Of a stretch of DNA of 64,000 nt, positions 10,667-55,133 are shown one piece after another (position 1 is the stretch's first letter; each line of letters begins with the position of its first letter). This stretch comes from Minisyncoccia bacterium (GTDB taxonomy: Bacteria > Patescibacteriota > Minisyncoccia > Phycocordibacterales > DATDWN01). The stretch lies in contig JBAQUS010000004.1 in NCBI GenBank assembly GCA_049297675.1, positions 13,188-77,187 of the forward strand, given 5' to 3'. The translations under genes and the position numbers were made by a program. The notes beneath the pieces were generated by a model that worked only from the letters and a program-made list of their open reading frames with translations, was not told the DNA's origin and ran no database searches.

Positions 10667-10667
10667 A

Positions 10668-11328: not shown

Positions 11329-11413
11329 ATAGTTTCTAAAGGATAAATATCAATACCCCCGCAACATTTTCTTCAGTTTCTCCATGTCTAACTAAAAATA
11401 ATTTCATATAAAT

Positions 11414-12381: not shown

Positions 12382-12384
12382 AAG

Positions 12385-12945
12385 TTATGATTTTAATCCG
12401 AATAATTTTTGACCCTCATCAAACAAATCGAGCATATCCTTCGAAAGAATGAGTGGGATAAACTTTTGTCTATCTTCTGGAGTAAGATTGTTTAGAGAAT
12501 CAATCTTCCAAGCTTCAAAGCCTATCGCTTTACCGGACTCGACCTGAAGGTCGCTGACCTTACCATCAAAAAGATAAACGTATTGTGAACGAATAGTATT
12601 ATTCGTAAGTTTTGTTACTTCATCAAAACTTTTCTTAAACATCTTTTTTACTAGCTTTAATTTTGAAAGATCTACATTAATTCCAGTTTCTTCTTTACAT
12701 TCTTTAACCGCTGTCTCATCATAAGTCATTTTTGGATCAACATGCCCACCAACAGTTGCATCAAGAAGATCTGGATATGTGTCTTTATCTTTTGCTCGAT
12801 GTTGGAAAACAATCTCCCTATCTGGAGTTATAAACCAAATATGAATTTCGCGATGCAATAATCCTTTTTCATGAACAGTTTTCCTTGGTTCAAGACCAAT
12901 TATTTCATCATTTTCATTTACAACTTCAAGCATTTCTTCTTTCAT
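12385..12945 (-). CDS. NUDIX hydrolase
   Basis: Nudix box GGHVDPKMTYDETAVKECKEETGI. Confidence 0.8.
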   Translation of the reverse strand: MKEEMLEVVNENDEIIGLEPRKTVHEKGLLHREIHIWFITPDREIVFQHRAKDKDTYPDLLDATVGGHVDPKMTYDETAVKECKEETGINVDLSKLKLVKKMFKKSFDEVTKLTNNTIRSQYVYLFDGKVSDLQVESGKAIGFEAWKIDSLNNLTPEDRQKFIPLILSKDMLDLFDEGQKLFGLKS

Positions 12946-12960
12946 ATTTAGTATAATAAC

Positions 12961-12992
12961 AAAAAATCACCGAGTTGTATCGGTGATTTTTT
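12961..12992. terminator. Bidirectional hairpin aaaaaatcaccga-gttgta-tcggtgatttttt
   Basis: 13-bp stem flanked by A and T runs, downstream of tRNA-Gln. A near-identical copy lies at 33933-33964. Confidence 0.6.
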
Positions 12993-13085
12993 GTCTTGAA
13001 TACTGCACTCAGCAGGTATGCTATGTCGGAATAGGTACTTGAGCCATTTCGACCCTCCTCGGAGTCCGAAACTATCTCAAGCTGG

Positions 13086-13156
13086 CTGGGGGGGAAGGAA
13101 TCGGACCTTCATTAGAAGCTTCAAAGGCTCCTGTCCTACCATTAGACGACCCCCCA
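13086..13156 (-). tRNA. tRNA-Gln (anticodon TTG)
   Basis: Hand-folded cloverleaf: TGGGGGG/CCCCCCA acceptor (U1-A72), anticodon arm GGAGC-CTTTGAA-GCTTC, T arm GAAGG-TCCGATT-CCTTC. CCA is encoded after the discriminator. Confidence 0.85.
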
Positions 13157-13266
13157 AATTTCTAGAATCAGGAAATCGGTCACAAATAATTTTCTGATGA
13201 AAATTTTCGCGACCCCGCCTCCTTCGTCTTCACTCAGTCCGGCCTTGCAAAAACATAACATGTTTT

Positions 13267-13319
13267 CTCACCCCTCTAAAGGCTTCAAAGGCCTCTGTTC
13301 TAGCGTGGGGCGTCTCCCA
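13267..13319 (-). pseudogene. Degenerate tRNA-Gln-like fragment
   Basis: The minus strand reads TGGGAGAC...GAGGC-CTTTGAA-GCCTT. The anticodon arm and 5' acceptor resemble the adjacent tRNA-Gln, but there is no foldable T arm or 3' acceptor. Confidence 0.35.
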
Positions 13320-13435
13320 ATATGCAATACAGTAACACTTTTTTTTGTCATCCTCAACTATTAGTCTAATCCAATTCACAATTACATACAAATATAAATT
13401 GATTAAACTTTAACTACTAATTAATTTACTTTGCT

Positions 13436-13473
13436 ATACACTTAACTTATGCTATAGCATAAGTTAAGTGTAT
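13436..13473. promoter_or_regulatory. 38-nt perfect palindrome atacacttaacttatgcta|tagcataagttaagtgtat
   Basis: Verified base by base. It lies 26 nt downstream of the PaaX-like stop and is related to the repeat at 14082-14131. Confidence 0.5.
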
Positions 13474-13498
13474 GTAGTCTTAGTATAGTATTTTAAGT

Positions 13499-14071
13499 TC
13501 AATCGAGAGAAAGAGAAAATAATTTTCTAATTCTCTTATCACCTTCGATAGAATCTGCAATTATGTAAAGTAGATCCTTCCCTATTTTGAAATCAGCTTT
13601 CAGTAAATTAATAAAGTCCTCACAATCGTAAGGGTAAATCCAGACACTATCTTGTAATCTCAGAAAACCAACACTACTAAGAGTCAACCTGACCTTGTTT
13701 CTAAGAATTTTTCTTGTTTCGGGAATATCAAAAATGAGCATTCTCCATCTTTTATCCCATTTCTTTGGTTTGCTAATTTTCCAATCCCTTATTTCCATGC
13801 CTTCTAAATATTTTAGTCCCTTTTCAGTTATTCTTATTAACCCGTTCTCACGTCCTAAAAATCCATTTTGTAGCAATTTATCACGAGATCTAGCCATTAC
13901 TTCTCTCTGCCTCTTTATCGGCTTAAAACCTGCTTTCTCTAGATACTGAACGGCATTAGGAGCAAGCAGTGCGAGACTGACATACCCCGCTAACTTTACT
14001 GAGGTTAGTATTATTTTTTTGAGATCATTTCTTGCCTTCCTTTTTCTTGATTTATTCTCTATATCCCCCAT
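13499..14071 (-). CDS. PaaX-like transcriptional regulator (wHTH + PaaX C-terminal-type domain)
   Basis: WDKRWRMLIFDIPETRKILRNKVRLTLSSVGFLRLQDSVWIYP is the characteristic PaaX-family segment. Confidence 0.55.
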   Translation of the reverse strand: MGDIENKSRKRKARNDLKKIILTSVKLAGYVSLALLAPNAVQYLEKAGFKPIKRQREVMARSRDKLLQNGFLGRENGLIRITEKGLKYLEGMEIRDWKISKPKKWDKRWRMLIFDIPETRKILRNKVRLTLSSVGFLRLQDSVWIYPYDCEDFINLLKADFKIGKDLLYIIADSIEGDKRIRKLFSLSLD

Positions 14072-14081
14072 TATTCGAATA

Positions 14082-14131
14082 TATCATATACACTTAACTA
14101 GTGCTATAGCACTGATTAAGTGTATATGATA
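14082..14131. promoter_or_regulatory. 50-nt inverted repeat (two mismatched pairs) immediately upstream of the PaaX-like gene
   Basis: tatcatatacacttaactagtgctat|atagcactgattaagtgtatatgata. It shares the atacacttaa arms and the gctatagc centre with 13436-13473. Confidence 0.5.
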
Positions 14132-14280
14132 GTTACGTAATATGCGTTAGTGTGTCTAATTCGTGTGCTAATATGTTTGTCTAGGACTATCAATAATATA
14201 TTATGAATCTATAATCAGTTTATTTATTCTGCTATTATTACAAATGTTACTAATCCTTCGTAGAATTCAAGAAAACGATA

Positions 14281-14958
14281 ATGCAAACTAATGTGGACCA
14301 AGTAGAGAAATTAAAAAATAAATTAATTGGTAGTAGGATTTCAGGTTTAGCTCTAGACATAGATGAAACACTTGCAGATTCAAACACACATTGGTTCGAA
14401 AATATGTTTAAATTCCACGCACCAGAGGGACTGAATCTAAAGGACGTCATGAGTAAACATAAATTTGTGGAGGAGGTTCCTGAATGGTCTACTGTAGAAG
14501 CTTTTGAATTCATGCAGGAAATGCTCCATTCGGAAGAATTCAATGAGTCAGTTCCTCTAATTGAAGATTCTAACCATATTGTAAATAAAATAGACAAGCT
14601 AATTCCAATAGTTGCTTATATAACAGCAAGACCTAGCACTGTGATTAACGCCACAAATAGATGGCTAAAAAGACATGACTTTCCTGCGGTTGACTTGATA
14701 ACTCGCCCACATGACATACAAGCTACTGTAACTGATATTATAGACAGAAACAAATGGAAAGCGAAAATCCTAATTGATCTCTTTCCATATGTTTCAGGAA
14801 TTATCGATGACAACTTGCTATTAGCACAATCACTTGACGATCTAGGTTACAAAGGTACGCTCTATCTTTATGGAACCAAAACAACAAAGTTTGATCACAT
14901 GAATCATGTTATAACATGCCCTACATGGAATGATGTTTTAGATAATATAGTAAAATAA
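14281..14958 (+). CDS. HAD-superfamily hydrolase, 5'(3')-deoxyribonucleotidase-like
   Basis: DxDxT motif LDIDETLAD and a later IIDDN motif. Confidence 0.5.
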   Translation: MQTNVDQVEKLKNKLIGSRISGLALDIDETLADSNTHWFENMFKFHAPEGLNLKDVMSKHKFVEEVPEWSTVEAFEFMQEMLHSEEFNESVPLIEDSNHIVNKIDKLIPIVAYITARPSTVINATNRWLKRHDFPAVDLITRPHDIQATVTDIIDRNKWKAKILIDLFPYVSGIIDDNLLLAQSLDDLGYKGTLYLYGTKTTKFDHMNHVITCPTWNDVLDNIVK

Positions 14959-15005
14959 ATAAAAAAAATAATAATTACAATTGTCTTAATTTTACTAGGA
15001 AGTGA

Positions 15006-16025
15006 CTAACTATTTATAATATTTATAAGAGCAAGTTCAAGTGGAAGAGATGGAATATATGAGGTTCCCACTCTCTCATAAGAATTTAGAAGTTCAATAA
15101 GTGTTTTGGATGAAAAATCCCCTGAAGCTTTGGCTATTTTAGATACAAACTCAAATTCCTTTTCTGATAGTTTGTTTTTGACTGAATTTTCTGTCCCAAA
15201 GCGGACAAGTAATACTGCTCTGGTAGTTTGTAGTATTAGTTTCAAAAATACAGACATATCTATGTTTTGTGATACAGCTTTTTTTACTGCATTAAGTCCA
15301 TTTTCAAGTTTCTTTTCGCTAATTGACTCAAGTATTTCATGAACTAACTCAACAGATGGTGCTCCTGTAACAAGCCGGACTTCTTCTTCTGAAATTTTTT
15401 TGTCCTTTGTATAAGACAAGACTTTTTGTAAAATTCCTTGAGTATCACGAAAAGAACCATCTCCCAAAAGTGCGATGAGCTCGGCAGAAGAATCTTCAAT
15501 CGAATACCCTTCTTTTTTGGATATATTCAATGCAACCTTTTTCAATGTTTCTTCACTTGGTTTTTTGAAAGTAAAGACTTCACAGCGTGAGAGAACAGTT
15601 TCTGGAATTTTGTGCGTTTCCGTGGTGGCTAAAATGAAAACAACATGAGAGGGTGGCTCCTCCAAAGTTTTTAGTAGTGCATTTGAAGCGGACTTTGAGA
15701 GCATGTGAACTTCATCCAAAATGTAAACTTTGTATTTTGACTCAAAAGGTAATGTAAAAACTGATTCGTTCAGTGACCTAATATCATCTACTGAAGTATT
15801 TGAAGCGGCATCAATCTCATATATATCGTTTTGAGTTGTGCCAATTTCCTTTGCAAATATTCTGGCAACCGAAGTCTTACCGGTCCCCCTAGTACCAGAA
15901 AAAAGATAGGCGTGGGAGATGTTACCTGAGCCTACTTCAGCCTCTAAAACCTTTACAACATGGTCCTGACCAATAACATCTTTAAATTTTGCTGGGCGAT
16001 ATTTACGATATAGTGACTCTGACAT
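15006..16025 (-). CDS. dnaX: DNA polymerase III gamma/tau subunit (short form)
   Basis: Walker A GTRGTGKTS, Walker B ILDEVHML and sensor SRC. Confidence 0.85.
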   Translation of the reverse strand: MSESLYRKYRPAKFKDVIGQDHVVKVLEAEVGSGNISHAYLFSGTRGTGKTSVARIFAKEIGTTQNDIYEIDAASNTSVDDIRSLNESVFTLPFESKYKVYILDEVHMLSKSASNALLKTLEEPPSHVVFILATTETHKIPETVLSRCEVFTFKKPSEETLKKVALNISKKEGYSIEDSSAELIALLGDGSFRDTQGILQKVLSYTKDKKISEEEVRLVTGAPSVELVHEILESISEKKLENGLNAVKKAVSQNIDMSVFLKLILQTTRAVLLVRFGTENSVKNKLSEKEFEFVSKIAKASGDFSSKTLIELLNSYERVGTSYIPSLPLELALINIINS

Positions 16026-16088
16026 GAAAGTAGTATAAACGAATCAGACCGCGGAGTACACACGCGGTCTGATAATCTGAATGCTGAA

Positions 16089-16271
16089 CTACATAGGCGG
16101 CTTCTTCTCTACCCTGAGACCACGAAGTGTGTGATTACGTCGGAAACGCACCATTATGACATTTCCGTTTCGTTTGATGTATCTAAATGGAATATTGCGC
16201 TTTTTTGTGAAAACATGTGCAACACAATCCATTCTGGGGAAACTGGTTTTGAACACCAAAGGTGATCTCAT
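16089..16271 (-). CDS. Hypothetical basic 60-aa protein; GC-richer orphan
   Basis: AGGGGG sits 6 nt upstream of the ATG. A GC-rich 11-bp hairpin terminator (atcagaccgcg...cgcggtctgat) lies at about 16044-16074. Confidence 0.35.
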   Translation of the reverse strand: MRSPLVFKTSFPRMDCVAHVFTKKRNIPFRYIKRNGNVIMVRFRRNHTLRGLRVEKKPPM

Positions 16272-44257: not shown

Positions 44258-44580
44258 TGAGTAACAGAAATCAAAGACTAAGTGAAATTCTAAGAGATTT
44301 AGGTGCCCGTTTTCTGCTTCTTAATGGAAACAAATCCTCGCTTTTAACCGTGACAAAATTGGAATTAACAAGGGATGGAAAAAATGCTACTATTTTCTTT
44401 ACGGTTTTTCCAAATAGTTTTGAAAAAACTGCTCTTGAGTTTGCCAAGAGAAAAAGAAGTGATTTTAGAGAATTCGTTAAGGAAAATTCAAAACTAGGAC
44501 ACCTCCCCCAGTTTGATTTTGAAATTGATCTAGGAGAGAAAAACCGTCAAAAAATTGACGGATTATTAAATGAAAAATGA
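44257..44580 (+). CDS. rbfA: Ribosome-binding factor A
   Basis: RLSEILRDLGARFLLL...LTVTKLELTRDGKNATIFF. The ATGA overlap with infB couples the two genes. The gene ends in TGA. Confidence 0.75.
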   Translation: MSNRNQRLSEILRDLGARFLLLNGNKSSLLTVTKLELTRDGKNATIFFTVFPNSFEKTALEFAKRKRSDFREFVKENSKLGHLPQFDFEIDLGEKNRQKIDGLLNEK

Positions 44581-44650
44581 CCTAGTCGCCAAGTGGTAAG
44601 GCAAAGCTCTGCAAAAGCTTTATACGGCGGTTCGATTCCGCCCTAGGTCT
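44579..44650 (+). tRNA. tRNA-Cys (anticodon GCA)
   Basis: Hand fold: GACCTAG/CTAGGTC acceptor, AAGCT-CTGCAAA-AGCTT anticodon arm, GGCGG-TTCGATT-CCGCC T arm. It starts inside the rbfA stop codon. Confidence 0.85.
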
Positions 44651-44719
44651 CCCTAAAACATTTACACAGTAAGTGTTTGGGTGAACAATTCATCCAGAGA
44701 GTTGTTGTAACCAAATTTT

Positions 44720-44801
44720 GCTCGGGTGGCGGAACTGGTATACGCGTTCGACTTAAAATCGAATCCCGAAAGGGGTATGGGTTCGATTCCCATCCCGAGC
44801 A
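44720..44801 (+). tRNA. tRNA-Leu (anticodon TAA)
   Basis: GCTCGGG/CCCGAGC acceptor, TTCGA-CTTAAAA-TCGAA anticodon arm, long variable arm, ATGGG-TTCGATT-CCCAT T arm. Confidence 0.85.
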
Positions 44802-44850
44802 CAAAATTGAAATAAACTAAAATTAATGTTATAAATTTAAAGTAAAATTT

Positions 44851-44923
44851 GCGCCTATAGCTCAGCTGGTAGAGCAGATCCCTCTTAAGGATAAGGTCCC
44901 AGGTTCGATCCCTGGTGGGCGCA
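44851..44923 (+). tRNA. tRNA-Lys (anticodon CTT)
   Basis: GCGCCTA/TGGGCGC acceptor, GCTC-AGCTGGTA-GAGC D arm, CTCTTAA anticodon loop, CCAGG-TTCGATC-CCTGG T arm. Confidence 0.85.
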
Positions 44924-45119
44924 CAAGCCGAAATAATCTAAACTGCTTTAGATTATTTCGGACTTGTGCGCAACCAGAATATACCTTTAGGTGATTCTGG
45001 TTGAGGTTTCGGGCTTGTGCGTTATTAAAACATGTTTACTAAATAGTTTGAATCGTGGTTTCAAATTTGTGTGTGAAAGTAAGATAGCAATATAATGTTT
45101 TAGTTTCAAGTTAACAATT

Positions 45120-45203
45120 GGGCGAGTGGCGTAACAGTAGCCGCGCCAGTCTTAGGAACTGGTCCCGTAAGGGGTGGAGGTGCGATTCCTCTCTCGCCCA
45201 CCA
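45120..45203 (+). tRNA. tRNA-Leu (anticodon TAG), atypical D and T loops, CCA encoded
   Basis: GGGCGAG/CTCGCCC acceptor, perfect CCAGT-CTTAGGA-ACTGG anticodon arm, long variable arm. The D loop lacks GG, and the T loop is TGCGATT rather than TTCGA.. . Confidence 0.6.
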
Positions 45204-45490: not shown

Positions 45491-46277
45491 CTGTCAAACA
45501 TCCGATGTTTGACAGTAAGTTAGGGGTAGATTATTACCGAAAATGTTAAAACTTTTTATACTTCAAAAGTTTTGGTGTCAGCTTTTACCCCGCTATTTTT
45601 TACAAATTTATAATATTCATATTTATCCTCAAATTGGTCTAATACTACTTCCCTTTTTAATATTTCCTTCCAACGATTTTCTGTAACGTAATCCTGATAG
45701 CTAGACCACTCATATTTTTCTGGATTATTACTCCAATGTGAAAGCTCTTTTGGATTTAAATGAACATACGCAGATAAATGTAGTAGTTGTTCATTACTTT
45801 CAACATGAACTGCTTTATACGGACCTTCAAAAAGATGCCCCGAAATTTTATATTTAGTATTGAAGTATTTTGTATACGAGTTAAGTACACGTTGCATATA
45901 TTTCCCAGTTCCACCTTCTTCATTTTCACGAACTATTAGATGAAAATGGTTAGTCATCATCGCAAAAGAAACTAGGTCAACGTATCTTTTCGAAATTATC
46001 TTTTCGTAATCATCACTGTTAATGTCAAACATCCGATGTTTGACATAATTCGAGATCATTCTTGAAACTTGAGGAAAAATAACATTTGCTTGAAAGTATA
46101 AAATGAGAAATAAAAATCTAATTCTATCTCTATCATCCTTGAAGATGATTTTCTTCCCAACTCCCCGATTATATATATGATAGTGTTCCCCAATTTCAAT
46201 ATTATCTCTTCTCATAACCTCTCATCCTACATGGACAACTATCCATCTGTCAAACATCGGATGTTTGACAGATGGAT
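45491..46277 (-). mobile_element. RAYT/IS200-like unit 1: Y1 gene bracketed by copies of the palindrome tgtcaaacatc-N-gatgtttgaca
   Basis: Palindromes at 45491-45515 (12+c+12), 46022-46046 (inside the CDS) and 46241-46277 (18+g+18). The centre base is complemented in the third copy. Confidence 0.6.
45556..46215 (-). CDS. HUH/Y1 tyrosine transposase-like protein (REP-associated, IS200-like domain)
   Basis: HYHIYNRGVGK, HUH motif TNHFHLIV and the catalytic-Tyr region LSAYVHLNP. Confidence 0.75.
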   Translation of the reverse strand: MRRDNIEIGEHYHIYNRGVGKKIIFKDDRDRIRFLFLILYFQANVIFPQVSRMISNYVKHRMFDINSDDYEKIISKRYVDLVSFAMMTNHFHLIVRENEEGGTGKYMQRVLNSYTKYFNTKYKISGHLFEGPYKAVHVESNEQLLHLSAYVHLNPKELSHWSNNPEKYEWSSYQDYVTENRWKEILKREVVLDQFEDKYEYYKFVKNSGVKADTKTFEV

Positions 46278-46367
46278 AAGATCGATTATTAGAAAGGCTT
46301 GTGATTTTTTTAAAATCGATCTTGTTGCAAATAACGGCTTAATGGTGGGGGTTTTTTGACGACACCC

Positions 46368-46401: not shown

Positions 46402-46499
46402 GGTGAGCAGAACGGGAGCGGCAATTCTTGCCCCTTTCGTCGCTCCTTGACACTCTAGTTTTTAGTTTACAAGCGCTTAAATGCGCAGAAGAGGTTAGC

Positions 46500-48038
46500 A
46501 TGTTTTACACTATCGCAATTTCCGTTCTCGTTGCAGTGACAATCTCGGTCCTGATCGTCGTCGGTTGGCTTATCTTCCGTGTCGTACAGACACGGAGGAG
46601 GACACCAGTCATTCATGATTGGGCGCGGAGGGATGATAGTCGCGAGACGACACCCTCCCCGACTCCTACCACGACATCCGGAATTGATGTCGACCTCACA
46701 CTGAATCCTCCCCGCCATACTCCGAAAGGAAATAGCGGAAGAGAACCCGAACCGTTGCCTCCATGTAAATGGAAAAAAGGCACGTTTCGTATCATCTACT
46801 GGGCGGTAATAATTCCGCTCGGAATGATATCTGTCTTCGTTCTGGAGTGGGGTATCCTATCGGGTCTGCCACTCACGTGGAATACCCTGTTGGAATTCAA
46901 CGCAACTTCAGTTGGGCTGACCCTTGTTGTTCTCTGGGTAGCCTACTTCTTGGACACATTCAAGATCGTCAAGTTCAATGAACTCGGCGGTCGTGTGGTA
47001 CTTGGTAGTTTCGAGTCCTACTCTGACGGGATAACTCTCGCACCGAGATGGATTACCGATCTGGTCAAGGTAACGAGAGCAACTGAAGAACTTGATCAAC
47101 CTCACAGTGACCCGTCAAAAATTTTCTGGGGAGACCTAAGCAAACTTCCAGACGGGAAAATCCCGGACGGTATGGTACTACCAATTCGTGTGCCATTCCT
47201 CCAGAGGTCAAGCGATGAAGACTTCGAAGTTCGCTGGCCACTTGAAACAGGAGAGGTCAAAACCAGAATTACAAAGGGCTATGACCTTCTTAGTGCAACG
47301 GATGCTCCTGTCGAGTATTCGATCGGAATCAGATTCATCGACATCCAACGTGTTATCGTTCGACTCAGGTCACTCAAAGCAGCCTACGACTTGGCAACAG
47401 ACTATGCAGAGACGCTCATAACGGGCACTTTGCAGAAAATGTCCGCTGCCGAAGCCCAAGTACTGAAACAGGAAATTTCAGTACATCTTGAGGAACAGAC
47501 GGACAACCGTGTTTTCCAATCGTACGGCTTCGTGATCGACTTCGTGACTTTGAAGTCAATCGGGACTTCGCACACAATCGCGGAATCGCGAGCGCAGGCG
47601 GCAGCAGCTGTCAACCTTGCGAATAAAACGGTTAGAGACGCAAAAGCTACAGCTAAGGCAACCGAACTTCAAGGTGCTTCTGTGGCTGGAGCTGAATTGG
47701 CACTACTCAACGCGAGGTCAGTAGGACTACGCAACATCGTCGACGCTGCGACTTCACGGTCAGGGGGAGTTGAACTCGCCAAAGCTATGGAAGCGGCACG
47801 CGCTATTCAGTTTGGCGCAGATTCGACAGTTGTTGTCCCAGGTGGAAACACTGGGGACGGTCTCGGACTCTTTGGCGCAGCGGTCGGTACAGCAATTAGT
47901 GCTTCGGCCGCACTTGGGAGAAAACCAGCTGGTGAAAAAGCTCTAACAGAGACCCAACCAGCACAACCAACAACTACTACAACACCCCCTGCACGTGGCG
48001 ACAGACGTGGCCATAAGAAAGGGGGTAAGAGGAGTTAG
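46500..48038 (+). CDS. Multi-TM SPFH/band-7 (prohibitin/HflK-like) domain protein with Ala-rich coiled C-terminus and basic P/T tail
   Basis: Start set at MFYTIAIS (GAGG 5 nt upstream). FKIVKFNELGGRVVLGSF ... YSIGIRFIDIQRVI ... YGFVIDFVTLKSIGTSHTIAESRAQAAAA fits the SPFH pattern. The DNA is GC-rich. Confidence 0.6.
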   Translation: MFYTIAISVLVAVTISVLIVVGWLIFRVVQTRRRTPVIHDWARRDDSRETTPSPTPTTTSGIDVDLTLNPPRHTPKGNSGREPEPLPPCKWKKGTFRIIYWAVIIPLGMISVFVLEWGILSGLPLTWNTLLEFNATSVGLTLVVLWVAYFLDTFKIVKFNELGGRVVLGSFESYSDGITLAPRWITDLVKVTRATEELDQPHSDPSKIFWGDLSKLPDGKIPDGMVLPIRVPFLQRSSDEDFEVRWPLETGEVKTRITKGYDLLSATDAPVEYSIGIRFIDIQRVIVRLRSLKAAYDLATDYAETLITGTLQKMSAAEAQVLKQEISVHLEEQTDNRVFQSYGFVIDFVTLKSIGTSHTIAESRAQAAAAVNLANKTVRDAKATAKATELQGASVAGAELALLNARSVGLRNIVDAATSRSGGVELAKAMEAARAIQFGADSTVVVPGGNTGDGLGLFGAAVGTAISASAALGRKPAGEKALTETQPAQPTTTTTPPARGDRRGHKKGGKRS

Positions 48039-48040
48039 TC

Positions 48041-49396
48041 ATGCCTATCGTCGCAATCGTTATCGTACTCCTCTTTCTCGTCTTCGGACGAAGGAAAGGA
48101 AACGATAGCAAATACATTCGAGAGTCAGAGGTCGTTGATACCAAGCCAAATGGTAAAACAGAGACGGAAAAACACACTCTGTGGTGGCACGTCGGCCACT
48201 ACAAACTCGTGTGGCTACAGCACTGGAGGAGGTCAACAACCCTCCGTGTCTCCGCCGGACTGCTTGCTTTCGGGCTGGGAGTCTGGATCTTCCCTCTAAC
48301 GAGGGAATGGTGGAGTTCGCAGTGGGTTAGCTTCGGCCTTTACCTAATTGCCGCTCTGGCCATTATCTGCCTTGGGTTCATGTTGGGCCCGGCGCAGAAA
48401 GTGCCGTTCGAGTACAGGCTCCGGCCTTTATTGCTCATCATTGGAATTGCGATCGCAGTCTACGGACTCGGTGCGAACACCAAGTTCGGTCAGAGCACCT
48501 GGTCGTGGATCGCCTCTCACTTCGGGAGAACAGATGGAAACATCGGTCTAACTCCAGAGGAGACAGCTGACCTACCGGACGGGTTCGTCGAGAGCGACAA
48601 TCCGAACCACTGGTCAAACCACGTCACCGATGAAAATCGTGATGTGGTCAACATGGTCCGGGCTGCCGTCCAGAGCGAACTTGTCCCAACCCATTGGGAC
48701 CTCGCCATGCAGATCTGCGGTATGGAATCGGCATGGTTTCGTCAGTTCGATGAGGACGGTAATGTTCTCAGAAACGTCAAAAACAATGACGGGTCAATCG
48801 ACTACGGAGTCTGTCAGATCAACTCCATATGGATGAAAAAGTCCAAGGAGTTGGGAGATGGTTTCCGGATCGACGGGCCGGCTGACGAAAACATTCGAAT
48901 GGCCATGTGGATCTGGACGAATCCAGAAACACGTGGGCCACGCGAGTGGACCGGTACGTACAACACAGCTCTTGCTGTTGTCCGCAATGCGCGGACAACG
49001 CCAGAGACTGTGAACGCACGTCGAACTCCAGAGAGGTCACCGGCTGAACAGGAGACTGTTCAGGCTGGGATCGCACTGGTCTCACAAACTGAGCCAATTC
49101 ACCAGCAACGCAACCCACAAAGAGAGGTGTCTGTCACAGCCATGTTTCCAGGATGGGTCACCGACAAGTCCTCCATGACCTGCGACCTCGAAGAGGACGC
49201 AGAAATCGAGGCGGTCGGTGAGCCTGGAATATTTTACTGGAGTGACACAAACTTCAGTACGAACATCCTAAAGCCTGGAGAAACTGCTTCACTTGCTGGA
49301 TTCAAATGCGTTGCAGTCAGATACTTTTCCCCAACGTTTGGGGGAAAACTGACTGAGGGTCAGAGCCCTTACGCAATCGTGAGACGATACAAATAA
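48041..49396 (+). CDS. Membrane-anchored lytic transglycosylase (SLT domain) with a C-terminal domain of unknown function
   Basis: Four to five N-terminal TMs. ICGMESAWFRQFDEDGNV ... DYGVCQINSIW contains the SLT catalytic E-S and the Q-I-N motif. AGAGGAG SD. The ATG lies 2 nt after the upstream stop. Confidence 0.7.
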   Translation: MPIVAIVIVLLFLVFGRRKGNDSKYIRESEVVDTKPNGKTETEKHTLWWHVGHYKLVWLQHWRRSTTLRVSAGLLAFGLGVWIFPLTREWWSSQWVSFGLYLIAALAIICLGFMLGPAQKVPFEYRLRPLLLIIGIAIAVYGLGANTKFGQSTWSWIASHFGRTDGNIGLTPEETADLPDGFVESDNPNHWSNHVTDENRDVVNMVRAAVQSELVPTHWDLAMQICGMESAWFRQFDEDGNVLRNVKNNDGSIDYGVCQINSIWMKKSKELGDGFRIDGPADENIRMAMWIWTNPETRGPREWTGTYNTALAVVRNARTTPETVNARRTPERSPAEQETVQAGIALVSQTEPIHQQRNPQREVSVTAMFPGWVTDKSSMTCDLEEDAEIEAVGEPGIFYWSDTNFSTNILKPGETASLAGFKCVAVRYFSPTFGGKLTEGQSPYAIVRRYK

Positions 49397-49430
49397 ACTA
49401 GAGTTAGAGAGGAGTACACATGTTCGCATG

Positions 49431-49466
49431 AGGCCGTTACCCGATAAGGGAACGGCCTCTTTTTAT
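49431..49466 (+). terminator. Rho-independent terminator of the GC-rich cassette
   Basis: aggccgtt...aacggcct stem followed by ctttttat. Confidence 0.6.
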
Positions 49467-49492
49467 GCATGATGATATATAAAATTTCTCTA

Positions 49493-49525
49493 CAGAAAAC
49501 CGCTCAAGTTGTGAGCGGTTTTCTG
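49493..49525. terminator. Bidirectional 14-bp hairpin cagaaaaccgctca-agttg-tgagcggttttctg
   Basis: Perfect arms, verified. It lies between the convergent cassette and the pilin operon. Confidence 0.6.
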
Positions 49526-49536
49526 TGACTAACTTG

Positions 49537-49827
49537 TTAATAGTTTCGTATTATAGCGTTGACTGCTGCGTTATTAGGTGCCACCCCGAAAGTGTTAAGG
49601 ACGAAGTGAACCAACCCATAAACCGAAAACATTATGACCATTCCCACTATTCCCCAGACCATGGAATCTCTGGACTCCTTTCTGGTATTTCCTTTATCGT
49701 CTGCATCAGAAGATAAAAACTTGATGGCCCCCCATACAAAGTACAGAAAGGCTATAGCAAACATGAGGAAAATCAATGGATTCAGTATAACGTTTGCTAC
49801 ATTACGTAGAAAAGGAACAATAGTCAT
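49537..49827 (-). CDS. VirB2/TrbC-like mini-pilin paralogue a (no signal peptide; possibly truncated)
   Basis: Core YFVWGAIKFLSSDADDKGNTRKESRDSMVWGIVGMV (TM-loop-TM). It lacks the leader present in the other six copies. Confidence 0.5.
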   Translation of the reverse strand: MTIVPFLRNVANVILNPLIFLMFAIAFLYFVWGAIKFLSSDADDKGNTRKESRDSMVWGIVGMVIMFSVYGLVHFVLNTFGVAPNNAAVNAIIRNY

Positions 49828-49852
49828 GTACTAGTTTCGTTAACTAGACTGA

Positions 49853-50206
49853 TTACAGACCTGTAACTGTTGGAACTGTACCAGTTGTGATGTTTTGAAC
49901 ACCAAATGTAGATTGTAACCATGCAACCAATCCGTAGATTGAGATCATGACTGCTATTGCAATCACACCCCAAATCATCTGGTTTCTACCTGCCTCCTGT
50001 GCCTTAGGATCCCCAGCTGAACGTAGGAATGTAACCAAGCCCCAGAAGAAGAACACTATCGCTAGACCGAAAACTATAGGGATAAGTGTTCTAACTGTTG
50101 TTGCAATGAAAGTAAGAAGTGCTTGCAAACCTGTTAAGTTTGGAGTCTGGGCGAAAGCCAAGACTGGAGCAAGAAAAGATCCTACTGAAATGACAATTTT
50201 TTTCAT
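49853..50206 (-). CDS. VirB2/TrbC-like mini-pilin paralogue b
   Basis: Leader ...PVLAFAQ. Core FFFWGLVTFLRSAGDPKAQEAGRNQMIWGVIAIAVM. Confidence 0.6.
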   Translation of the reverse strand: MKKIVISVGSFLAPVLAFAQTPNLTGLQALLTFIATTVRTLIPIVFGLAIVFFFWGLVTFLRSAGDPKAQEAGRNQMIWGVIAIAVMISIYGLVAWLQSTFGVQNITTGTVPTVTGL

Positions 50207-50311
50207 TTTTTTGTTAATATTACGATTAATAATGCTATTATAGTACTTTTTAAAAATAATGCAAGTCCTCGGTCAAATAGACTCTGTGGATTAGTTTACT
50301 TCCAGTTATAC

Positions 50312-50689
50312 TTAGTTTGGACTAAAACATGTTTCAAAGTTAGTACAAGACTCAATACTAAAGACATTTCCAAGAAATGCCACTATTCCAAATAATGATA
50401 GAATGATGAACATGCCTATAATACCCCATAACATCCTTTGTTTTCCTTCCTCACGGGATTTAGAATCACCAGAATTTAGTACAAATTGTGCCACACCCCA
50501 TATAAAGAAAAGCAAAGCAACACTGCCTAGGATTGGTACTAATATATCAACTAAATCCTTAAATTCCTGAGCAAAAGTCTGAATAGTTTGAGCCGAAAGA
50601 ATGGTTGGAAAAATAGACCAAGACAAAGACACTACAAAAAATATTCTGCTGGTGTAACCATGAGAAAATATAAATTTTCTTACCATCAA
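50312..50689 (-). CDS. VirB2/TrbC-like mini-pilin paralogue c
   Basis: Leader ...ILSAQ. Core FFIWGVAQFVLNSGDSKSREEGKQRMLWGIIGMF. The C-tail has a Cys pair. Confidence 0.6.
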   Translation of the reverse strand: MMVRKFIFSHGYTSRIFFVVSLSWSIFPTILSAQTIQTFAQEFKDLVDILVPILGSVALLFFIWGVAQFVLNSGDSKSREEGKQRMLWGIIGMFIILSLFGIVAFLGNVFSIESCTNFETCFSPN

Positions 50690-50711
50690 AATAGTTAATG
50701 TTACAAAATTA

Positions 50712-51071
50712 TTATAAAGAAGTACAGATCATTGACCCGATTGGACACCCTGTTTGTGGTATCCCTAGAGCAGTATTTATAAATGCCACTATTCCGAATA
50801 TAGACATTATTACGAACATACCAACTACACCCCATATCATCCTTTGTTTTCCCTCTTCTCTCAGTTTGGTATCGCCAGCATTTAGAATAAATGTAGCTAC
50901 ACCCCACATAAAGAACATAAAAGCCAAACCGAAGACGATGGGTATAAGAAGTCGAACTATATTTCCGAATTCAGTCACTAGTGTTCTTACCACGGCTAGA
51001 CTCTGGGCAAAAATAAAAACAGGAAATAAAAGTTGTGGTGCATAAATTAAAAATTTTAGATTTTTCTTCAT
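50712..51071 (-). CDS. VirB2/TrbC-like mini-pilin paralogue d
   Basis: Leader ...FIFAQ. Core FFMWGVATFILNAGDTKLREEGKQRMIWGVVGMF. The C-tail has a Cys pair. Closest to paralogue c at the DNA level. Confidence 0.6.
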   Translation of the reverse strand: MKKNLKFLIYAPQLLFPVFIFAQSLAVVRTLVTEFGNIVRLLIPIVFGLAFMFFMWGVATFILNAGDTKLREEGKQRMIWGVVGMFVIMSIFGIVAFINTALGIPQTGCPIGSMICTSL

Positions 51072-51140
51072 ATTTTTTATTTATTTCTATTTATTACTAT
51101 CAGTTATGCATTATAATACATACAACACAAAAGTACAAGG

Positions 51141-51524
51141 CTAAAATCTAATGAAAACAAAGGCAGGATCAGCATCAGTAGAGCCATTCAACCCTACAGC
51201 GTTTATAACAACACCAATGATTGCTCTTACAGATAGTAGGACAAATAAAGCAATTGTTCCCCAAAGCATATATTTTCTTCCATTTTCTATTTCCGTTTTA
51301 TTTCCAGATCGAATAAAAAATTTAGAAAGACCCCAAATAAATACTAAAACAGCTAAAGAAAGAAAGGCTGGCAGGATTGTGTTGTAAATAAGTTCTCCTG
51401 TGGTGAAGGCGGCATCTCCAAATGTGCCACCCGGAGGTATAAGTTGGGCATAAGCAATAATCGGAAAAACACTGACAACAAGGTTTGAAATGAACCTGTA
51501 GTGCTTTAAAAAAAAAGTTTTCAT
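51141..51524 (-). CDS. VirB2/TrbC-like mini-pilin paralogue e
   Basis: Leader ...IIAYAQ. Core VFIWGLSKFFIRSGNKTEIENGRKYMLWGTIALF. Confidence 0.55.
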   Translation of the reverse strand: MKTFFLKHYRFISNLVVSVFPIIAYAQLIPPGGTFGDAAFTTGELIYNTILPAFLSLAVLVFIWGLSKFFIRSGNKTEIENGRKYMLWGTIALFVLLSVRAIIGVVINAVGLNGSTDADPAFVFIRF

Positions 51525-51536
51525 TATTGATAAATT

Positions 51537-51899
51537 TTAACCAACAGTGATTAGTTGACTAACCGTATTTCTAACCAGCTCTGATATGGCCACAGCTCCG
51601 AGGAGAATTCCTCCGCCTATGAGAGCCCAGAGAAGTCTCTGTTTTGCCTCGCCAAGTTTTTTCTCATTACCTTGGGCAGTTACAAAAGTAAAGCCTGCAT
51701 AAATAATGTACATTACAACCACCACGGCTCCTATAGGCAAAACCACGTTGTTAAGGAGTGCAGTTAAAATATCAATGAGATTGCTTCCTGCTTTGGTGGC
51801 CGGATTGGTAATGGTAATATTTTGAGCGAACAAAACTACTGGCAAAATAATATTAGCGAGTATCAGAAGAATTTTTGTGTATTTTTTATATATTTTCAT
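51537..51899 (-). CDS. VirB2/TrbC-like mini-pilin paralogue f
   Basis: Leader ...VVLFAQ. Core IYAGFTFVTAQGNEKKLGEAKQRLLWALIGGG. Confidence 0.55.
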   Translation of the reverse strand: MKIYKKYTKILLILANIILPVVLFAQNITITNPATKAGSNLIDILTALLNNVVLPIGAVVVVMYIIYAGFTFVTAQGNEKKLGEAKQRLLWALIGGGILLGAVAISELVRNTVSQLITVG

Positions 51900-51903
51900 A
51901 TTA

Positions 51904-52314
51904 TTAACCTAGAAAAGTTGGAATATTATCATCTAATAATGCTGTGGTGATAAGTCTAACTAACACCCAGGCGATTATTATAATAGCAATACCCTGTACA
52001 ACTTTAAGAAGCATACCCGCGGCTTTTGCCCGCTCCGAAGCACTCTCTCCACCCATCATAAACCTAAAGCCAGCCCAAGCGATAACTATAACAGAAAAAC
52101 CTAGGGCAAACTTAGTTCCTTCGTTTGTCACTCGTCTTACGGCTCTTATCAGGTCATCAAATGTACACTCTCCTGCTATCCCACCAACTCCGGGACACTC
52201 GTAAACAAACTGGGCATGGCTTACTAGTGGTGTAAAAAGAAAAAGAAAAACAAGAAACAGGAGAATTTTTGATGCCAAATTATTTAAAAATGTACTTCTC
52301 ATTTTGTTAAACAT
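51904..52314 (-). CDS. VirB2/TrbC-like mini-pilin paralogue g (most divergent)
   Basis: Leader ...LVSHAQ. The mature N-terminus has CPGVGGIAGEC. Core IAWAGFRFMMGGESASERAKAAGMLLKVVQGIAII. Its start overlaps the stop of the upstream gene. Confidence 0.5.
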   Translation of the reverse strand: MFNKMRSTFLNNLASKILLFLVFLFLFTPLVSHAQFVYECPGVGGIAGECTFDDLIRAVRRVTNEGTKFALGFSVIVIAWAGFRFMMGGESASERAKAAGMLLKVVQGIAIIIIAWVLVRLITTALLDDNIPTFLG

Positions 52315-53603
52315 TATGATTTGATTAGAGCAGTCAGTTCTGTTTCCGCTCTGTTTAAGGCATCAGATGCTCTAGACCTTCCACTAGTTATGCTCTCAAT
52401 CATATCACGAAACAGATTTGAAGTTGCCTGTGGTTCAGGATCAATCCACGACCTGGAGATTAAGGCAGAATCATAGAATACTTGCATGTGAGCCTCTGGA
52501 GGCTTCACAGAAAGCATGTCTCTTCTTACAGGAGGTAGGTTTGTAATGCCACCTATTCCCTTTATAGCTTCGACCTCTGTCAGAGCGTTTAGGGCTATAA
52601 AGGAGGCCTGGATATTTTTGGATTGCTTTACAATGGATATACCGTAGAGATGTCCGAAAACTACTTTCTTTTTGCTATCTCTTATTTGTGGAACCGAAGT
52701 GACACCGTAATTTAGATTTGGATTTTTTTGTTGAATACCAACTAGCTCACTAGCAAAACCAAAATAAATAGCCAAATTTCCGGAGAGAAAGAAGTTGGAT
52801 GAAGATGGAAGGGACCTATTCCAGGAATATGAGACAAGGTTTGGATTAGAAAATTGGATGTAAAAATCTGTTGCTGACTGGCTCGGAGTCCTAGGATATC
52901 CGAACTGAAGGTTAAGCACTGTATCAAGCCCATTTTCCTCCCTCTGTATTATTGGTGTTCCAGCTTGGAGCATGAGCATTATGAGTAACTCCTTGGCACT
53001 TGTGATATTTCTCCATTCACCGAAAGCTATAGTTGATTGAGAAATATTGGCCTGACCGTCTTTTTTGGTGATCTTTGGAACCAAGTCTGGAATCTCGTCC
53101 CAGTATTTAGGAGGGGACGCAATAAAGTTGCTGGAGAATAAGTCTCTATTCCAATACATAACCATGGGATCAATAATGAATGGCAAAGCTAATATGCCTT
53201 CTGGAGTAAGAAACAATTCCCCTTCTTCTATAAACCTGTCCTTGAAATCCCTCTCTGGATAAAATTCCGATGGTATTGGATAAAGTTTATTTCTATTTTT
53301 GTAAACCAAATCCTCTCTAAGAATAACTATGTCTGGCCCTCTACCTTCTGCCAGAGCCTCGACAAAGTCTCTATCAAAATCTGATGGGTCCTTTCTGACA
53401 TACATCACTCTTATGTTTTTATTTCCAGAAAGTGACGAAGCTATATAAGCATTTGTAAATGCATCGTCCGAAATAGTTCCCCATGCGACTAGACCAGCAG
53501 ATACATTTGCTGTACCGGTATTTTTACTCAAGGCAAAAACCATAATACCTGCAACTATGGCCACAGAGAAGACGGCTATGACAGCTATTTTAAACGTACT
53601 CAT
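52314..53603 (-). CDS. Membrane-anchored extracellular solute-binding-fold protein (orphan; no permease or ATPase nearby)
   Basis: N-terminal TM, then ...PDIVILREDL...ALPFIIDPMVMYWNRDLF...PPKYWDEIPDL..., an SBP family-1-like pattern. Confidence 0.55.
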   Translation of the reverse strand: MSTFKIAVIAVFSVAIVAGIMVFALSKNTGTANVSAGLVAWGTISDDAFTNAYIASSLSGNKNIRVMYVRKDPSDFDRDFVEALAEGRGPDIVILREDLVYKNRNKLYPIPSEFYPERDFKDRFIEEGELFLTPEGILALPFIIDPMVMYWNRDLFSSNFIASPPKYWDEIPDLVPKITKKDGQANISQSTIAFGEWRNITSAKELLIMLMLQAGTPIIQREENGLDTVLNLQFGYPRTPSQSATDFYIQFSNPNLVSYSWNRSLPSSSNFFLSGNLAIYFGFASELVGIQQKNPNLNYGVTSVPQIRDSKKKVVFGHLYGISIVKQSKNIQASFIALNALTEVEAIKGIGGITNLPPVRRDMLSVKPPEAHMQVFYDSALISRSWIDPEPQATSNLFRDMIESITSGRSRASDALNRAETELTALIKS

Positions 53604-53640
53604 ATTCGCTGATTATAACAAGAAATCATTTTTTCTAAAA

Positions 53641-54168
53641 TTACATCTTCTTAAAGATTAATCCGTAGTGATGTGCTCCGGCGGAAATTTCCCTGTCTAT
53701 ACTAAAGCCCTGCTTTTCAAAAAGCTCTTTGGCTTTTGGTTTTTTAACAACATCGATCGGTTTTGGACCAATTCCACCGAATGAATCTGACCAGTCTATT
53801 ACCAATACCCTTCCCCCGGGTTTTAAAATTCTTTTGGCCTCTTTTATTGCCCCGACTTTATCATCTAGCTGAAAAAGAAGATTGCAAATAAAAACCAGAT
53901 CAACAGAAGAATCCCTAAGTTTTGCTCCATTTGGCTTTTCGACATTACCCCATACTACTTCTATGTTATAAAGGCCTTCTTTTGTTGAGTTATTTTTCAA
54001 TCTGGTCAGTAGCTCTTTATCTACGTCAATAGCGTAAACCCTACCAGTTGAAATGAGCGCCCTTGAAGCAGCCATGGAGTAATGTCCCGAGCCAGAACCA
54101 AAATCTGCAATATCCATCCCGGCCTGTATTCCACACTGCTCTATGTTTTTTATTGGATCGGAGAACAT
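53641..54168 (-). CDS. Class I SAM-dependent methyltransferase
   Basis: Motif I IADFGSGSGHYS and post-I/II LKPGGRVLVIDW. Confidence 0.75.
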   Translation of the reverse strand: MFSDPIKNIEQCGIQAGMDIADFGSGSGHYSMAASRALISTGRVYAIDVDKELLTRLKNNSTKEGLYNIEVVWGNVEKPNGAKLRDSSVDLVFICNLLFQLDDKVGAIKEAKRILKPGGRVLVIDWSDSFGGIGPKPIDVVKKPKAKELFEKQGFSIDREISAGAHHYGLIFKKM

Positions 54169-54341: not shown

Positions 54342-55076
54342 TTACTAGGGTAACCCTAGTAATTACTAGTAACTATCTTTATATTCTAACCAATCAGTTA
54401 TATTATCATTAAAATCAAAGATACTTGAAAAATACTCAGGGAAATTAGTTTTGTCTAAAATCATACCCGCTTCCCTCTTTTGTCCGACATAATCTAAATA
54501 ACTAGAACAATCATAATTCGATAGAAATTTTTTAGCTTTACTAATGTTTTTTATTCCAGATTCTTTCCAGTCATATTCAATTAATTTAACTGGATTAAGA
54601 TGAATGTAAGAAAATAAATATTTCAAATATTCATCAGAGTCAGCATGTTCTGCTTTATATGTACCCTGAAACAACGAACCCACTCTATCATTTAATTTAT
54701 TAAAGTAGGTAGAATAGCCCGTAGTCAATTTTTCCATAAACATAGCTGTACCGCCCTCAACAATTTCTCTAACAAGAATATGAAAATGATTTGGCATTAA
54801 AACCCATGCTCCTATTGCAACGAGTTGCTCGCCCCTGTTAATATCTTTCAATGGTAAGTCTATTGTTGTGCTGTACCTATAAGGAAGAGTATTGTTTGCA
54901 AGATATAAGAGTCTAATAAATCTCTTATAATCATTCTGTGAAATAAAAATATCGCGCTTTTCAACTCCTCGATTATATATATGGTAAAACTCGCCTTCAG
55001 ATATGACTATTTTTCTTTGCATAGAAGCACTATATACTAACAACTCTCATCTTACTAGGGTAACCCTAGTAAGATG
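54342..55076 (-). mobile_element. RAYT/IS200-like unit 2: Y1 gene bracketed by the palindrome ttactagggt-a-accctagtaa
   Basis: 21-nt copy at 54342-54362 and an extended 29-nt copy (catcttactagggt a accctagtaagatg) at 55048-55076. Confidence 0.6.
54366..55022 (-). CDS. HUH/Y1 tyrosine transposase-like protein (second, divergent paralogue)
   Basis: FYHIYNRGVEK, HUH motif PNHFHILV and Tyr region LFSYIHLNP. Start moved to MQRKIVIS by analogy with paralogue 1. Confidence 0.75.
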   Translation of the reverse strand: MQRKIVISEGEFYHIYNRGVEKRDIFISQNDYKRFIRLLYLANNTLPYRYSTTIDLPLKDINRGEQLVAIGAWVLMPNHFHILVREIVEGGTAMFMEKLTTGYSTYFNKLNDRVGSLFQGTYKAEHADSDEYLKYLFSYIHLNPVKLIEYDWKESGIKNISKAKKFLSNYDCSSYLDYVGQKREAGMILDKTNFPEYFSSIFDFNDNITDWLEYKDSY

Positions 55077-55133
55077 AAATTTTGATACCATGAAGCCCTG
55101 AGACTTCATGGTCCCAGGGCTGTTACCTGCTTT

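Follow-up and report, generated by a model that had tools for sequence, protein, structure and literature searches.

An ordered array of seven type IV secretion system pilin-like genes headed by a solute-binding protein gene in a Minisyncoccia bacterium

We analysed a 64,000-nucleotide (nt) stretch of the genome of a Minisyncoccia bacterium (assembly GCA_049297675.1, contig JBAQUS010000004.1; the whole stretch is called the window below), which carries on its minus strand a gene for a membrane-anchored solute-binding protein followed by seven small genes for pilin-like proteins. We read this locus as a local version of the pilin array that belongs to the Patescibacteria type IV secretion system (T4SS); in this version a binding protein is coupled to the pilins, the subunits fall into fixed classes and the VirB4/VirB6 machine is encoded at a distance. 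We give this reading a probability of about 0.65. The basic classification is unchanged, and the locus is a member of the kind described in 2023–2025. Within that kind it stands apart as a variant that has apparently not been described: a binding protein heads the array, virB4 does not lie beside it, the copies are ordered, an internal promoter sits beside a DnaA-box-like site, and the arrangement is conserved in much of Paceibacteria. The class Minisyncoccia, named Paceibacteria in GTDB, belongs to Minisyncoccota, which corresponds to the Patescibacteria or candidate phyla radiation.

The original prediction, made by a model from the letters of the sequence, had placed eight minus-strand open reading frames (ORFs) here. 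When the ORFs were re-read from the sequence, all eight lay at the predicted coordinates, and the gaps between the small genes were 4, 12, 69, 22, 105 and 25 nt, as reported. The predicted overlap at the head of the array was likewise present, with the stop codon of the gene for the 429-amino-acid (aa) binding protein and the start codon of the first pilin gene sharing base 52314. We named the pilins g, f, e, d, c, b and a in transcription order. The DNA of the locus was 100% identical in three independent assemblies, namely GCA_049296155.1 ("Minisyncoccia bacterium") and two Logan assemblies. The binding protein and the pilins are as follows, with bit scores for the Pfam families.

52314..53603, minus strand: family-1 solute-binding protein with a MalE-like fold and an N-terminal transmembrane anchor, 429 aa (PF01547, PF13416, AlphaFold2, Foldseek).
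51904..52314, minus strand: pilin g, 136 aa, first-position class, with a Cys pair at the mature N-terminus (PF18895, E-value 7e-5, 23.2 bits, below the cut-off).
51537..51899, minus strand: pilin f, 120 aa, second-position class (PF04956 TrbC/VirB2, 30.8 bits, above the cut-off; PF18895, 25.4 bits).
51141..51524, minus strand: pilin e, 127 aa, a middle copy of variable number (PF18895, 25.8 bits; the position of its best match varies between species).
50712..51071, minus strand: pilin d, 119 aa, a middle copy with a C-tail Cys pair (PF18895, 38.8 bits; AlphaFold2 model, mean predicted local distance difference test score (pLDDT) 79).
50312..50689, minus strand: pilin c, 125 aa from a TTG start (the public gene call takes the next ATG, giving 124 aa), a middle copy with a C-tail Cys pair (PF18895, 45.1 bits).
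49853..50206, minus strand: pilin b, 117 aa, penultimate class, candidate major subunit (PF18895, 35.1 bits).
49537..49827, minus strand: pilin a, 96 aa, last-position class, leaderless (PF18895, 31.2 bits).

The small proteins had been proposed to be pilins of the VirB2/TrbC type, and a profile hidden Markov model (HMM) search supported this. PF18895 (T4SS_pilin) matched all seven with E-values of 1e-11 to 7e-5. Pilins a, b, c and d (31.2–45.1 bits) scored above the curated cut-off of 26.6 bits, and e, f and g fell 1–3 bits short of it. Pilin f also exceeded the cut-off of PF04956 (TrbC/VirB2), with 30.8 against 27.9 bits. Among 142 array proteins (the seven of the window and 135 from 21 other species), 139 were matched by PF18895 at an E-value of 1e-3 or better and 27 by TrbC. 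In NCBIfam, the only family to match the window pilins was the "pilin-like conjugal transfer protein" family of Mycoplasma integrative and conjugative elements, and this match was under its cut-off. When a pilin sequence profile was compared with all PDB chains, the top match was TraM, the VirB2-type pilin of pKM101 (E-value 0.02). Because PF18895 matches seven of seven and the arrangement recurs in 80 other species, the array is not a chance pattern.

The seven pilins, which share a mean pairwise identity of 25.7% and a maximum of 46%, showed a common plan when aligned: a leader ending in x-x-A-Q, about 20–30 residues, a helix, a charged loop, a second helix and a short variable tail. In agreement with the original prediction, six leaders end in SHAQ, LFAQ, AYAQ, IFAQ, LSAQ and LAFAQ and the 96-aa copy has none; pilin a begins directly at the pre-helix segment. 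The hydropathy profiles likewise showed two hydrophobic helices around a charged loop in every pilin. The loop motif GD.K..E.G(K/R)..M.WG, which had been ascribed to the whole set, was exact in b, c and d, whereas e, f, g and a matched it only in part. The Cys pairs lay where they had been placed: pilins c and d carry theirs in the C-tail, and pilin g at its mature N-terminus. The AlphaFold2 model of pilin d (pLDDT 79) showed a leader helix (residues 5–21) followed by the two hairpin helices (25–63 and 68–101). The VirB2 leader is cut at Ala47|Gln48, and by this precedent and the −3/−1 rule signal peptidase I probably cuts the six leaders of the window pilins between A and Q, not after Q.

To follow the array across species, one genome per species was scanned with the binding protein. 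The scan gave 80 loci (L007–L086) from Zambryskibacteria, Taylorbacteria, "Parcubacteria" and Paceibacterota metagenome-assembled genomes (class Paceibacteria/Minisyncoccia), with binding proteins 43–62% identical to that of the window. The pilins in these loci were located with an HMM built from the seven window copies, which replaced a word-indexed homologue search with pilin d that had reached 10 relatives only. Counts of array positions were taken over 54–56 species, and counts of neighbours over the 80 loci. In every relative locus having downstream sequence, the pilin genes lay on the same strand directly after the binding-protein gene. The binding-protein gene and the first pilin gene were separated by a median of 3 nt, and by 25 nt or less at 88% of junctions. 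Complete arrays held six genes in 33 loci and seven in 15, with four genes in 3 loci, five in 3 and eight in 2.

The order of the copies was conserved. The best match of pilin g sat first in 53/54 species and that of pilin f second in 54/56, while the best match of pilin b was penultimate in 43/56 and that of pilin a last in 50/56. Pilins e, d and c mapped to a middle zone, where the copy number ranged from 2 to 4 between species. The classes also kept features of their own. All 70 g-type orthologues had at least two Cys residues. The a-type orthologues had a median length of 92 aa, with two hydrophobic segments in 45/54 and an AQ-type leader end in 0/54. Because the short length, the two helices and the absence of a leader are all kept in the orthologues, the leaderless last copy is best regarded as a conserved class, not as a truncated or decayed gene. 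Pilin b gave the highest of the seven scores against the all-species pilin profile.

Within each class, the helices and loop were 40–60% identical to the window copy, compared with 12–31% for the mature N-terminal segment and the C-tail. A conserved core with divergent tails had been claimed for the window, and the class alignments agreed, with the N-terminal regions diverging as well. A variable N-terminal segment and C-tail around a conserved core is the pattern expected with both ends exposed. Taken across species, the comparison argues for an ancient ordered set with specialised members, not for a recent variation cassette. The positional orthology, the class features and the identical DNA in three assemblies favour a hetero-subunit structure over a switching cassette.

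One relative carries an unusual member of the array. In L062 (positions 9747–16259, plus strand), a 2,170-aa protein with a signal peptide and a C-terminal f-type pilin domain is encoded inside the pilin array. It contains seven He_PIG/Big_9/cadherin-like repeats together with PKD and fn3 domains, and its ORF crosses a short run of N. Of all the observations, this adhesin–pilin fusion points most clearly to an outward-facing N-terminus of the pilins and to a pilin module that is able to bear an adhesin.

The 429-aa protein at the head of the array matched PF01547 (SBP_bac_1) with 54 bits and PF13416 (SBP_bac_8) with 48 bits. Its AlphaFold2 model had a pLDDT of 82, and the top Foldseek match of this model was maltose-binding protein (template-modelling score ~0.7, E-value ~1e-22, 18% identity). 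The N-terminus is a single transmembrane helix and a lipobox is absent. More than 2,300 homologues were found, with ~60% identity among the best-scoring matches listed. Sequence conservation was 0.69 in the anchor helix (residues 1–27), 0.46 in the linker and 0.74 in the globular part.

The original prediction had stated that no ATP-binding cassette (ABC) permease or ATPase lies near this gene, and had named such genes beside it in relatives as evidence that would count against a pilus-associated role. None was found in the window or, among gene clusters, in the 80 relatives. The ABC ATPase signature (Walker A with LSGGQ) gave a single match in the 1,426 neighbouring ORFs of the 80 loci, and this was an SMC-like protein. 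The binding protein most likely works with the pilins at the membrane, as judged from its universal linkage to them, its co-translation with g and the conserved sequence of its anchor helix. The function is inferred, and this tie is the weakest step of our reading, because the whole region is syntenic and a permease may lie elsewhere.

The transcription signals and the gene upstream of the binding protein are listed below.

53641..54168, minus strand: class I SAM-dependent methyltransferase, 175 aa (Pfam Methyltransf_11/25/31, UbiE family), probable first operon gene in most relatives.
53612..53639, minus strand: promoter-like site TTTAGA, 16 nt, TG-TATAAT, within the 37-nt gap before the binding-protein gene (found by consensus scan, a pattern match alone).
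50237..50293, minus strand: putative internal promoter before pilins b and a, with a DnaA-box-like TAATCCACA at 50293–50285, a −35 TTGCAT at 50264–50259 and a −10 TATAAT at 50242–50237.
49492..49526, minus strand: hairpin closing the pilin operon, with a 15-bp stem ACAGAAAACCGCTCA / TGAGCGGTTTTCTGT (read from the sequence; the T-run after it is weak).

The methyltransferase gene lies directly 5' of the binding-protein gene in 64/80 loci and is absent in 16/80. In relatives the two genes usually share a 4-nt stop/start overlap, with a conserved promoter upstream; in the window they are 37 nt apart, and the methyltransferase is 70–74% identical to its closest relatives. From this placement, the overlap and the promoter, the transcription unit in most species would consist of the methyltransferase, the binding protein and the pilins. 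An Rfam scan showed no known RNA elements in the operon, and within the window tRNAs were found elsewhere only.

In nearly all species the gap before the penultimate pilin gene is long (median 101 nt) compared with the other gaps (5–20 nt). The DnaA-box consensus TTATCCACA was present exactly in the penultimate gap of 22/56 arrays, and with at most one mismatch in 42/56. Its density was 2.8 per kb in the penultimate gaps but 0.019 per kb in the remaining sequence of the loci, a difference of ~150-fold. In relatives the layout of the internal promoter is TTATCCACA, N5–6, a TTGt −35 element, ~14–20 nt and TAtAAT, and a more distant subgroup carries the box inverted (CTGTGGATTAC). Many species also have a conserved ATTACA element behind the −10 hexamer of this promoter. 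A role for DnaA at the b/a promoter is suggested by the identity of the neighbouring site to the consensus alone. A replication origin in the window was rejected, as there was no exact DnaA box and the one-mismatch sites (17 versus 19 expected) were unclustered.

The original prediction had reported that no VirB4, VirB6, VirD4 or relaxase gene lies within 64 kb. None was found in our ORF scans for T4SS and ABC genes, which outside 46–55 kb mostly covered ORFs of at least ~190 aa. In relatives the check covered 10 kb around the locus, and included the recurrent gene clusters and 10 of the 21 unclustered ORFs of at least 480 aa. The missing secretion ATPase had been presented as a peculiarity of the locus. 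Its absence is true of the window but ordinary for Patescibacteria: in a survey of 3,035 Patescibacteria genomes, VirB2-like pilins were found in 1,948 VirB4-positive assemblies and lay near virB4 in 1,135 of these (PMC12102498). Parcubacteria C7867-006, which carries the same operon (L013), is listed as VirB4-positive.

Pilin arrays of this kind have precedents. The same survey counted 441 arrays of 2–11 pilin genes, spread over 383 assemblies, whose members were on average 25% and at most 54% identical (Quinonero-Coronel et al. 2025; PMC12102498). In Southlakia epibionticum, the T4SS cluster contains six PF18895 genes (SEML1_0014–0019), and growth on the host requires every one of them (Wang et al. 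2023; PMC10633639). A 2025 review described the Patescibacteria systems as the only Gram-positive-type T4SSs with pilins (PMC12857230), and in cultured Paceibacteria that parasitise methanogens, T4SS pilins were among the highest-expressed genes with signal peptides (PMC10936435). The novelty first assigned to the array was therefore too high, since Patescibacteria pilin arrays had been published in 2023 and 2025 (PMC10633639, PMC12102498).

The window array resembles those of Southlakia and the survey in its tandem PF18895/TrbC-like genes, its leader and two helices, its identity of ~25% and its origin in a monoderm ultrasmall organism. Its seven genes compare with six in Southlakia and 2–11 in the survey. 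However, unlike the Southlakia array it does not lie inside or beside a virB4/virB6 cluster, and a family-1 binding protein heads it. Arrays of the window type further differ from both in their clade-wide positional orthology, their leaderless last member and their internal promoter with a DnaA-box-like site. The words "solute" and "substrate-binding" do not occur in the main text of the 2025 survey (PMC12102498), and the annotation of the Southlakia T4SS cluster contains no solute-binding entry (PMC10633639). In the part of Table S3 of the survey that we drew on, the pilin calls made by PF18895 only all carry "VirB4 proximity: Yes" (PMC12102498), so detached arrays may be under-counted there.

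Comparison with better-known systems showed likenesses and differences. Like Agrobacterium VirB2, RP4 TrbC and pKM101 TraM, the window pilins have a long leader that is probably cut before Gln or Ala, a two-helix hairpin and a short basic loop. The diderm systems have one pilin gene in a T4SS operon, VirB5/VirB7/VirB9/VirB10 partners and often cyclisation or acetylation of the pilin, whereas the window has seven divergent genes, no adjoining machinery and a monoderm envelope. Several divergent tandem genes whose exposed parts vary are also known from the VirB2 paralogues of Bartonella and Anaplasma (cited in PMC12102498). In those animal pathogens the copies are read as antigenic variants; in contrast, arrays of the window type keep their order and class over deep divergence, which points to distinct structural roles.

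For the binding protein, the closest parallel is found in enterococcal plasmids. PrgZ of pCF10 and TraC of pAD1 are orphan pheromone-binding proteins that are encoded with a conjugative plasmid T4SS and have no permease of their own; PrgZ is a family-5, OppA-type peptide binder, and its signal is imported through the Opp permease encoded on the chromosome. The window protein is like them in being a solute-binding-fold protein without its own permease, encoded with an element of the Gram-positive-type T4SS. Unlike PrgZ, it is a family-1 protein (MalE/UgpB-like) that has a transmembrane helix as its anchor and is translated together with a pilin, and no signalling peptide system is evident.

Under our reading, six of the pilins would be exported with a Sec leader and cut by signal peptidase I at A|Q, leaving an N-terminal Gln, and the seventh, pilin a, would insert without a leader. 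The two-helix hairpin would stay in the membrane, its two ends facing outward and its charged loop facing inward. From this membrane pool of pilins, a VirB4/VirB6-type machine whose genes lie elsewhere in the genome would assemble a surface filament or conduit for contact with host cells. Pilin g may be an initiator or tip-like subunit with a disulphide loop, pilin f a second, TrbC-like class, and the two to four middle copies the adaptable members. Pilins b and a could be main or separately controlled subunits with their own promoter beside the DnaA-box-like site. The binding protein, made in step with g, may capture or sense a ligand at the base of the structure or act as an assembly partner of the pilins.

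Several observations weigh against this reading. T4SS machinery was found neither in the 64 kb nor within 10 kb of the locus in the 80 relatives as checked. Three of the seven pilins (e, f and g) score slightly under the PF18895 cut-off, and that family is itself of predicted function; to our knowledge, no Patescibacteria T4SS has so far been observed to form a pilus. A Foldseek search with the pilin d model against PDB returned nothing at an E-value of 0.001 or better and gave non-specific helical matches only. The helical hairpin is a non-discriminating fold, and this result was counted neither for nor against the pilin reading. The box of the window, TAATCCACA, differs from the consensus at one base and is separated from the −35 element by ~14 nt more than the boxes of relatives. 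The whole region, GyrA and IF-2 included, is syntenic across the clade, so that conservation of neighbours is weak evidence for a shared function. Lastly, an ABC permease served by the binding protein could be encoded elsewhere.

The last two points lead to the explanation that survives best beside ours, although we consider it clearly less likely. The binding protein would here be the ordinary, free-standing receptor of an ABC importer for a sugar or glycerol-phosphate-type ligand, with the permease and ATPase encoded elsewhere, and the transcript shared with the pilins would be a historical accident. The good PF01547 and PF13416 scores and the MalE-like fold are what such a receptor would show, and an identity of ~60% among the best-scoring homologues listed is expected of a ligand-binding protein; with synteny across the clade, the linkage may have been passively inherited. 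However, a permease or ABC ATPase stood beside the binding protein in 0/80 species, and the junction with the first pilin was tight or overlapping in most of them. The link was also kept where the upstream context differed, for example in L049, L052 and L071. Conservation of the anchor equals that of the globular domain and so exceeds what a passive tether would require.

We think it improbable that no filament is made at all, and that the two-helix membrane subunits and the binding protein form a new channel, transporter or sensor independent of any T4SS. The fixed, stoichiometric-looking set in conserved order would suit such a device, as would the obligatory linkage with the binding protein, the detachment from T4SS genes in all 80 species (as far as checked), the lack of a structural match to solved pilins and the conservation of the leaderless copy. 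On the other hand, the homology to TrbC/VirB2 and T4SS_pilin is at the level of families, the best PDB profile match is a true conjugative pilin and the homologous Southlakia array lies inside a T4SS cluster (PMC10633639). The ends of the pilins vary while the core is conserved, and the fusion in L062 suits surface display better than a channel.

The model of the original prediction, a paralogue set for surface variation with interchangeable members of which one or few are used at a time for antigenic or host-range variation, has on its side the divergent tails and N-terminal regions around a kept core, the change in middle-copy number (2 to 4) between species and the published analogy with the multi-copy VirB2 of Bartonella and Anaplasma (PMC12102498), but it fares worst, since these are ancient paralogues in fixed order whose first, second, penultimate and last copies are one-to-one orthologues at 43–62% binding-protein identity and whose classes each keep their own conserved features, since the genes lie 4–25 nt apart in one tight operon with a single internal promoter, since the locus is identical in three assemblies, and since no repeats or switching signals were noted, though no systematic search was made.

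Downstream of the array, two genes run convergently towards it.

49430–49458, plus strand: second hairpin, with a T-run on the plus strand, serving the convergent gene (read from the sequence).
48041..49396, plus strand: lysozyme-like membrane protein, 451 aa, convergent, a possible VirB1-type wall-opening enzyme (homologue profile against hen lysozyme).
46428..48038, plus strand: SPFH/Band-7 membrane protein, 536 aa, co-oriented with the lysozyme-like gene (positional homologues reach PF01145).

The first of these proteins had been called a lytic transglycosylase. A lysozyme-like muralytic motif was present, but there was no curated match to SLT, IagB or VirB1: the 451-aa protein gave no Pfam match and only a faint NCBIfam match to IagB (E-value 0.023), and a positional homologue reached SLT at an E-value of only 0.056. 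A profile of 23 positional homologues matched residues 34–64 of hen lysozyme, the Glu35–Asp52 core (E-value 0.002). The window protein reads MESAW...NNDGSIDYGVCQINSIW, which contains the catalytic Glu-Ser motif and the G-x-x-Q-I-N lysozyme core. We regard it as a membrane-anchored lysozyme-like enzyme, possibly analogous to VirB1, and a homologue holds the same position in relatives. The positional homologues of the 536-aa protein pass the PF01145 (Band_7) cut-off and are 24–28% identical to the window protein. Both proteins evolve fast, with 24–30% identity where the binding protein has ~60%.

The convergent pair (46428–49396) has a GC content of 0.52 versus 0.37 for the window. At third codon positions (GC3) the values were 0.60 for the lysozyme-like gene, 0.48 for the SPFH gene and ~0.30 for the neighbours. 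In relatives the GC3 of the pair was a median of 14.5 points over that of the binding-protein gene, and it was the higher one in 89% of 64 cases. We rejected a single horizontal transfer as the source of the GC jump at 46–50 kb, because the positional homologues are GC-rich in most species; the jump is a clade-wide property, not a recent insertion. For a phage origin of the pair, no relatives were found in IMG/VR, a weak negative since a single-protein search detects close relatives only. The L002 contig (NCBI JBAQRY010000003.1) ends 125 nt past the last pilin gene, where the GC-rich pair starts, which suggests that the compositional jump breaks assembly or binning.

The remainder of the window is a low-GC (~0.37) housekeeping stretch with GyrA, ClpB, TopA, RelA/SpoT, IF-2, SerRS, MurA, MurB, ParB and DnaX, among others. 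The block conserved in relatives runs from GyrA through, sometimes, an IS200-like gene, then the methyltransferase, the binding protein, the pilins and the two convergent genes, with IF-2 further on. In the window the block is bracketed by two paralogous IS200-like genes (Y1 transposase, RAYT-like) at 45556–46215 and 54366–55043, both on the minus strand. Near-perfect palindromes lie just 5' of their starts (46240–46278 and 55047–55077, with arms of 19 bp and ~15 bp), and IS200-like homologues occur between GyrA and the operon in 12/80 relatives. The pair was rejected as evidence of a mobile island, since the block and its GyrA and IF-2 flanks are syntenic with or without these genes. Four tRNA genes (Cys, Leu, Lys and Leu) lie at 44579–45203 on the plus strand, between IF-2 and the first IS200-like gene.

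Three further ORFs are recorded here. At 13499–14071 (minus strand), a 190-aa ORF matched the Cas2-like central domain of PaaX and, weakly, CRISPR Cas2; no other cas genes were noticed. At 9602–10666 (minus strand), a 354-aa protein combines a Phage_rep_O-like/winged-helix N-terminus with a histidine-kinase-like ATPase and a STAS-like DUF4325. On another Patescibacteria contig (L059, 2288–5107, minus strand), a 939-aa ORF matched the shoulder and repeat domains of the major vault protein.

The clade-wide operon offers a concrete handle on the cargo and direction of the Patescibacteria T4SS, a system that is essential in the one species tested, is free of relaxases and has pilins that are unusual for Gram-positive systems. 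It provides a soluble ligand-binding domain to screen and defined subunit classes to seek in filaments. That the copies keep their order speaks for a hetero-subunit structure and against antigenic variation, and the DnaA-box-like promoter suggests a possible link between the host-contact machinery and replication control. A far-reaching version, which we regard as a long shot, is that the binding protein and the ordered pilins form an uptake device, in which a host compound is captured at the foot of a VirB2-type conduit and transcription of b and a is tied to DnaA through TTATCCACA. If this were true, the T4SS of Patescibacteria, at least in Paceibacteria, would be an importer with a dedicated receptor, and an obligate epibiont would couple the building of its host-contact organelle to its own cell cycle.

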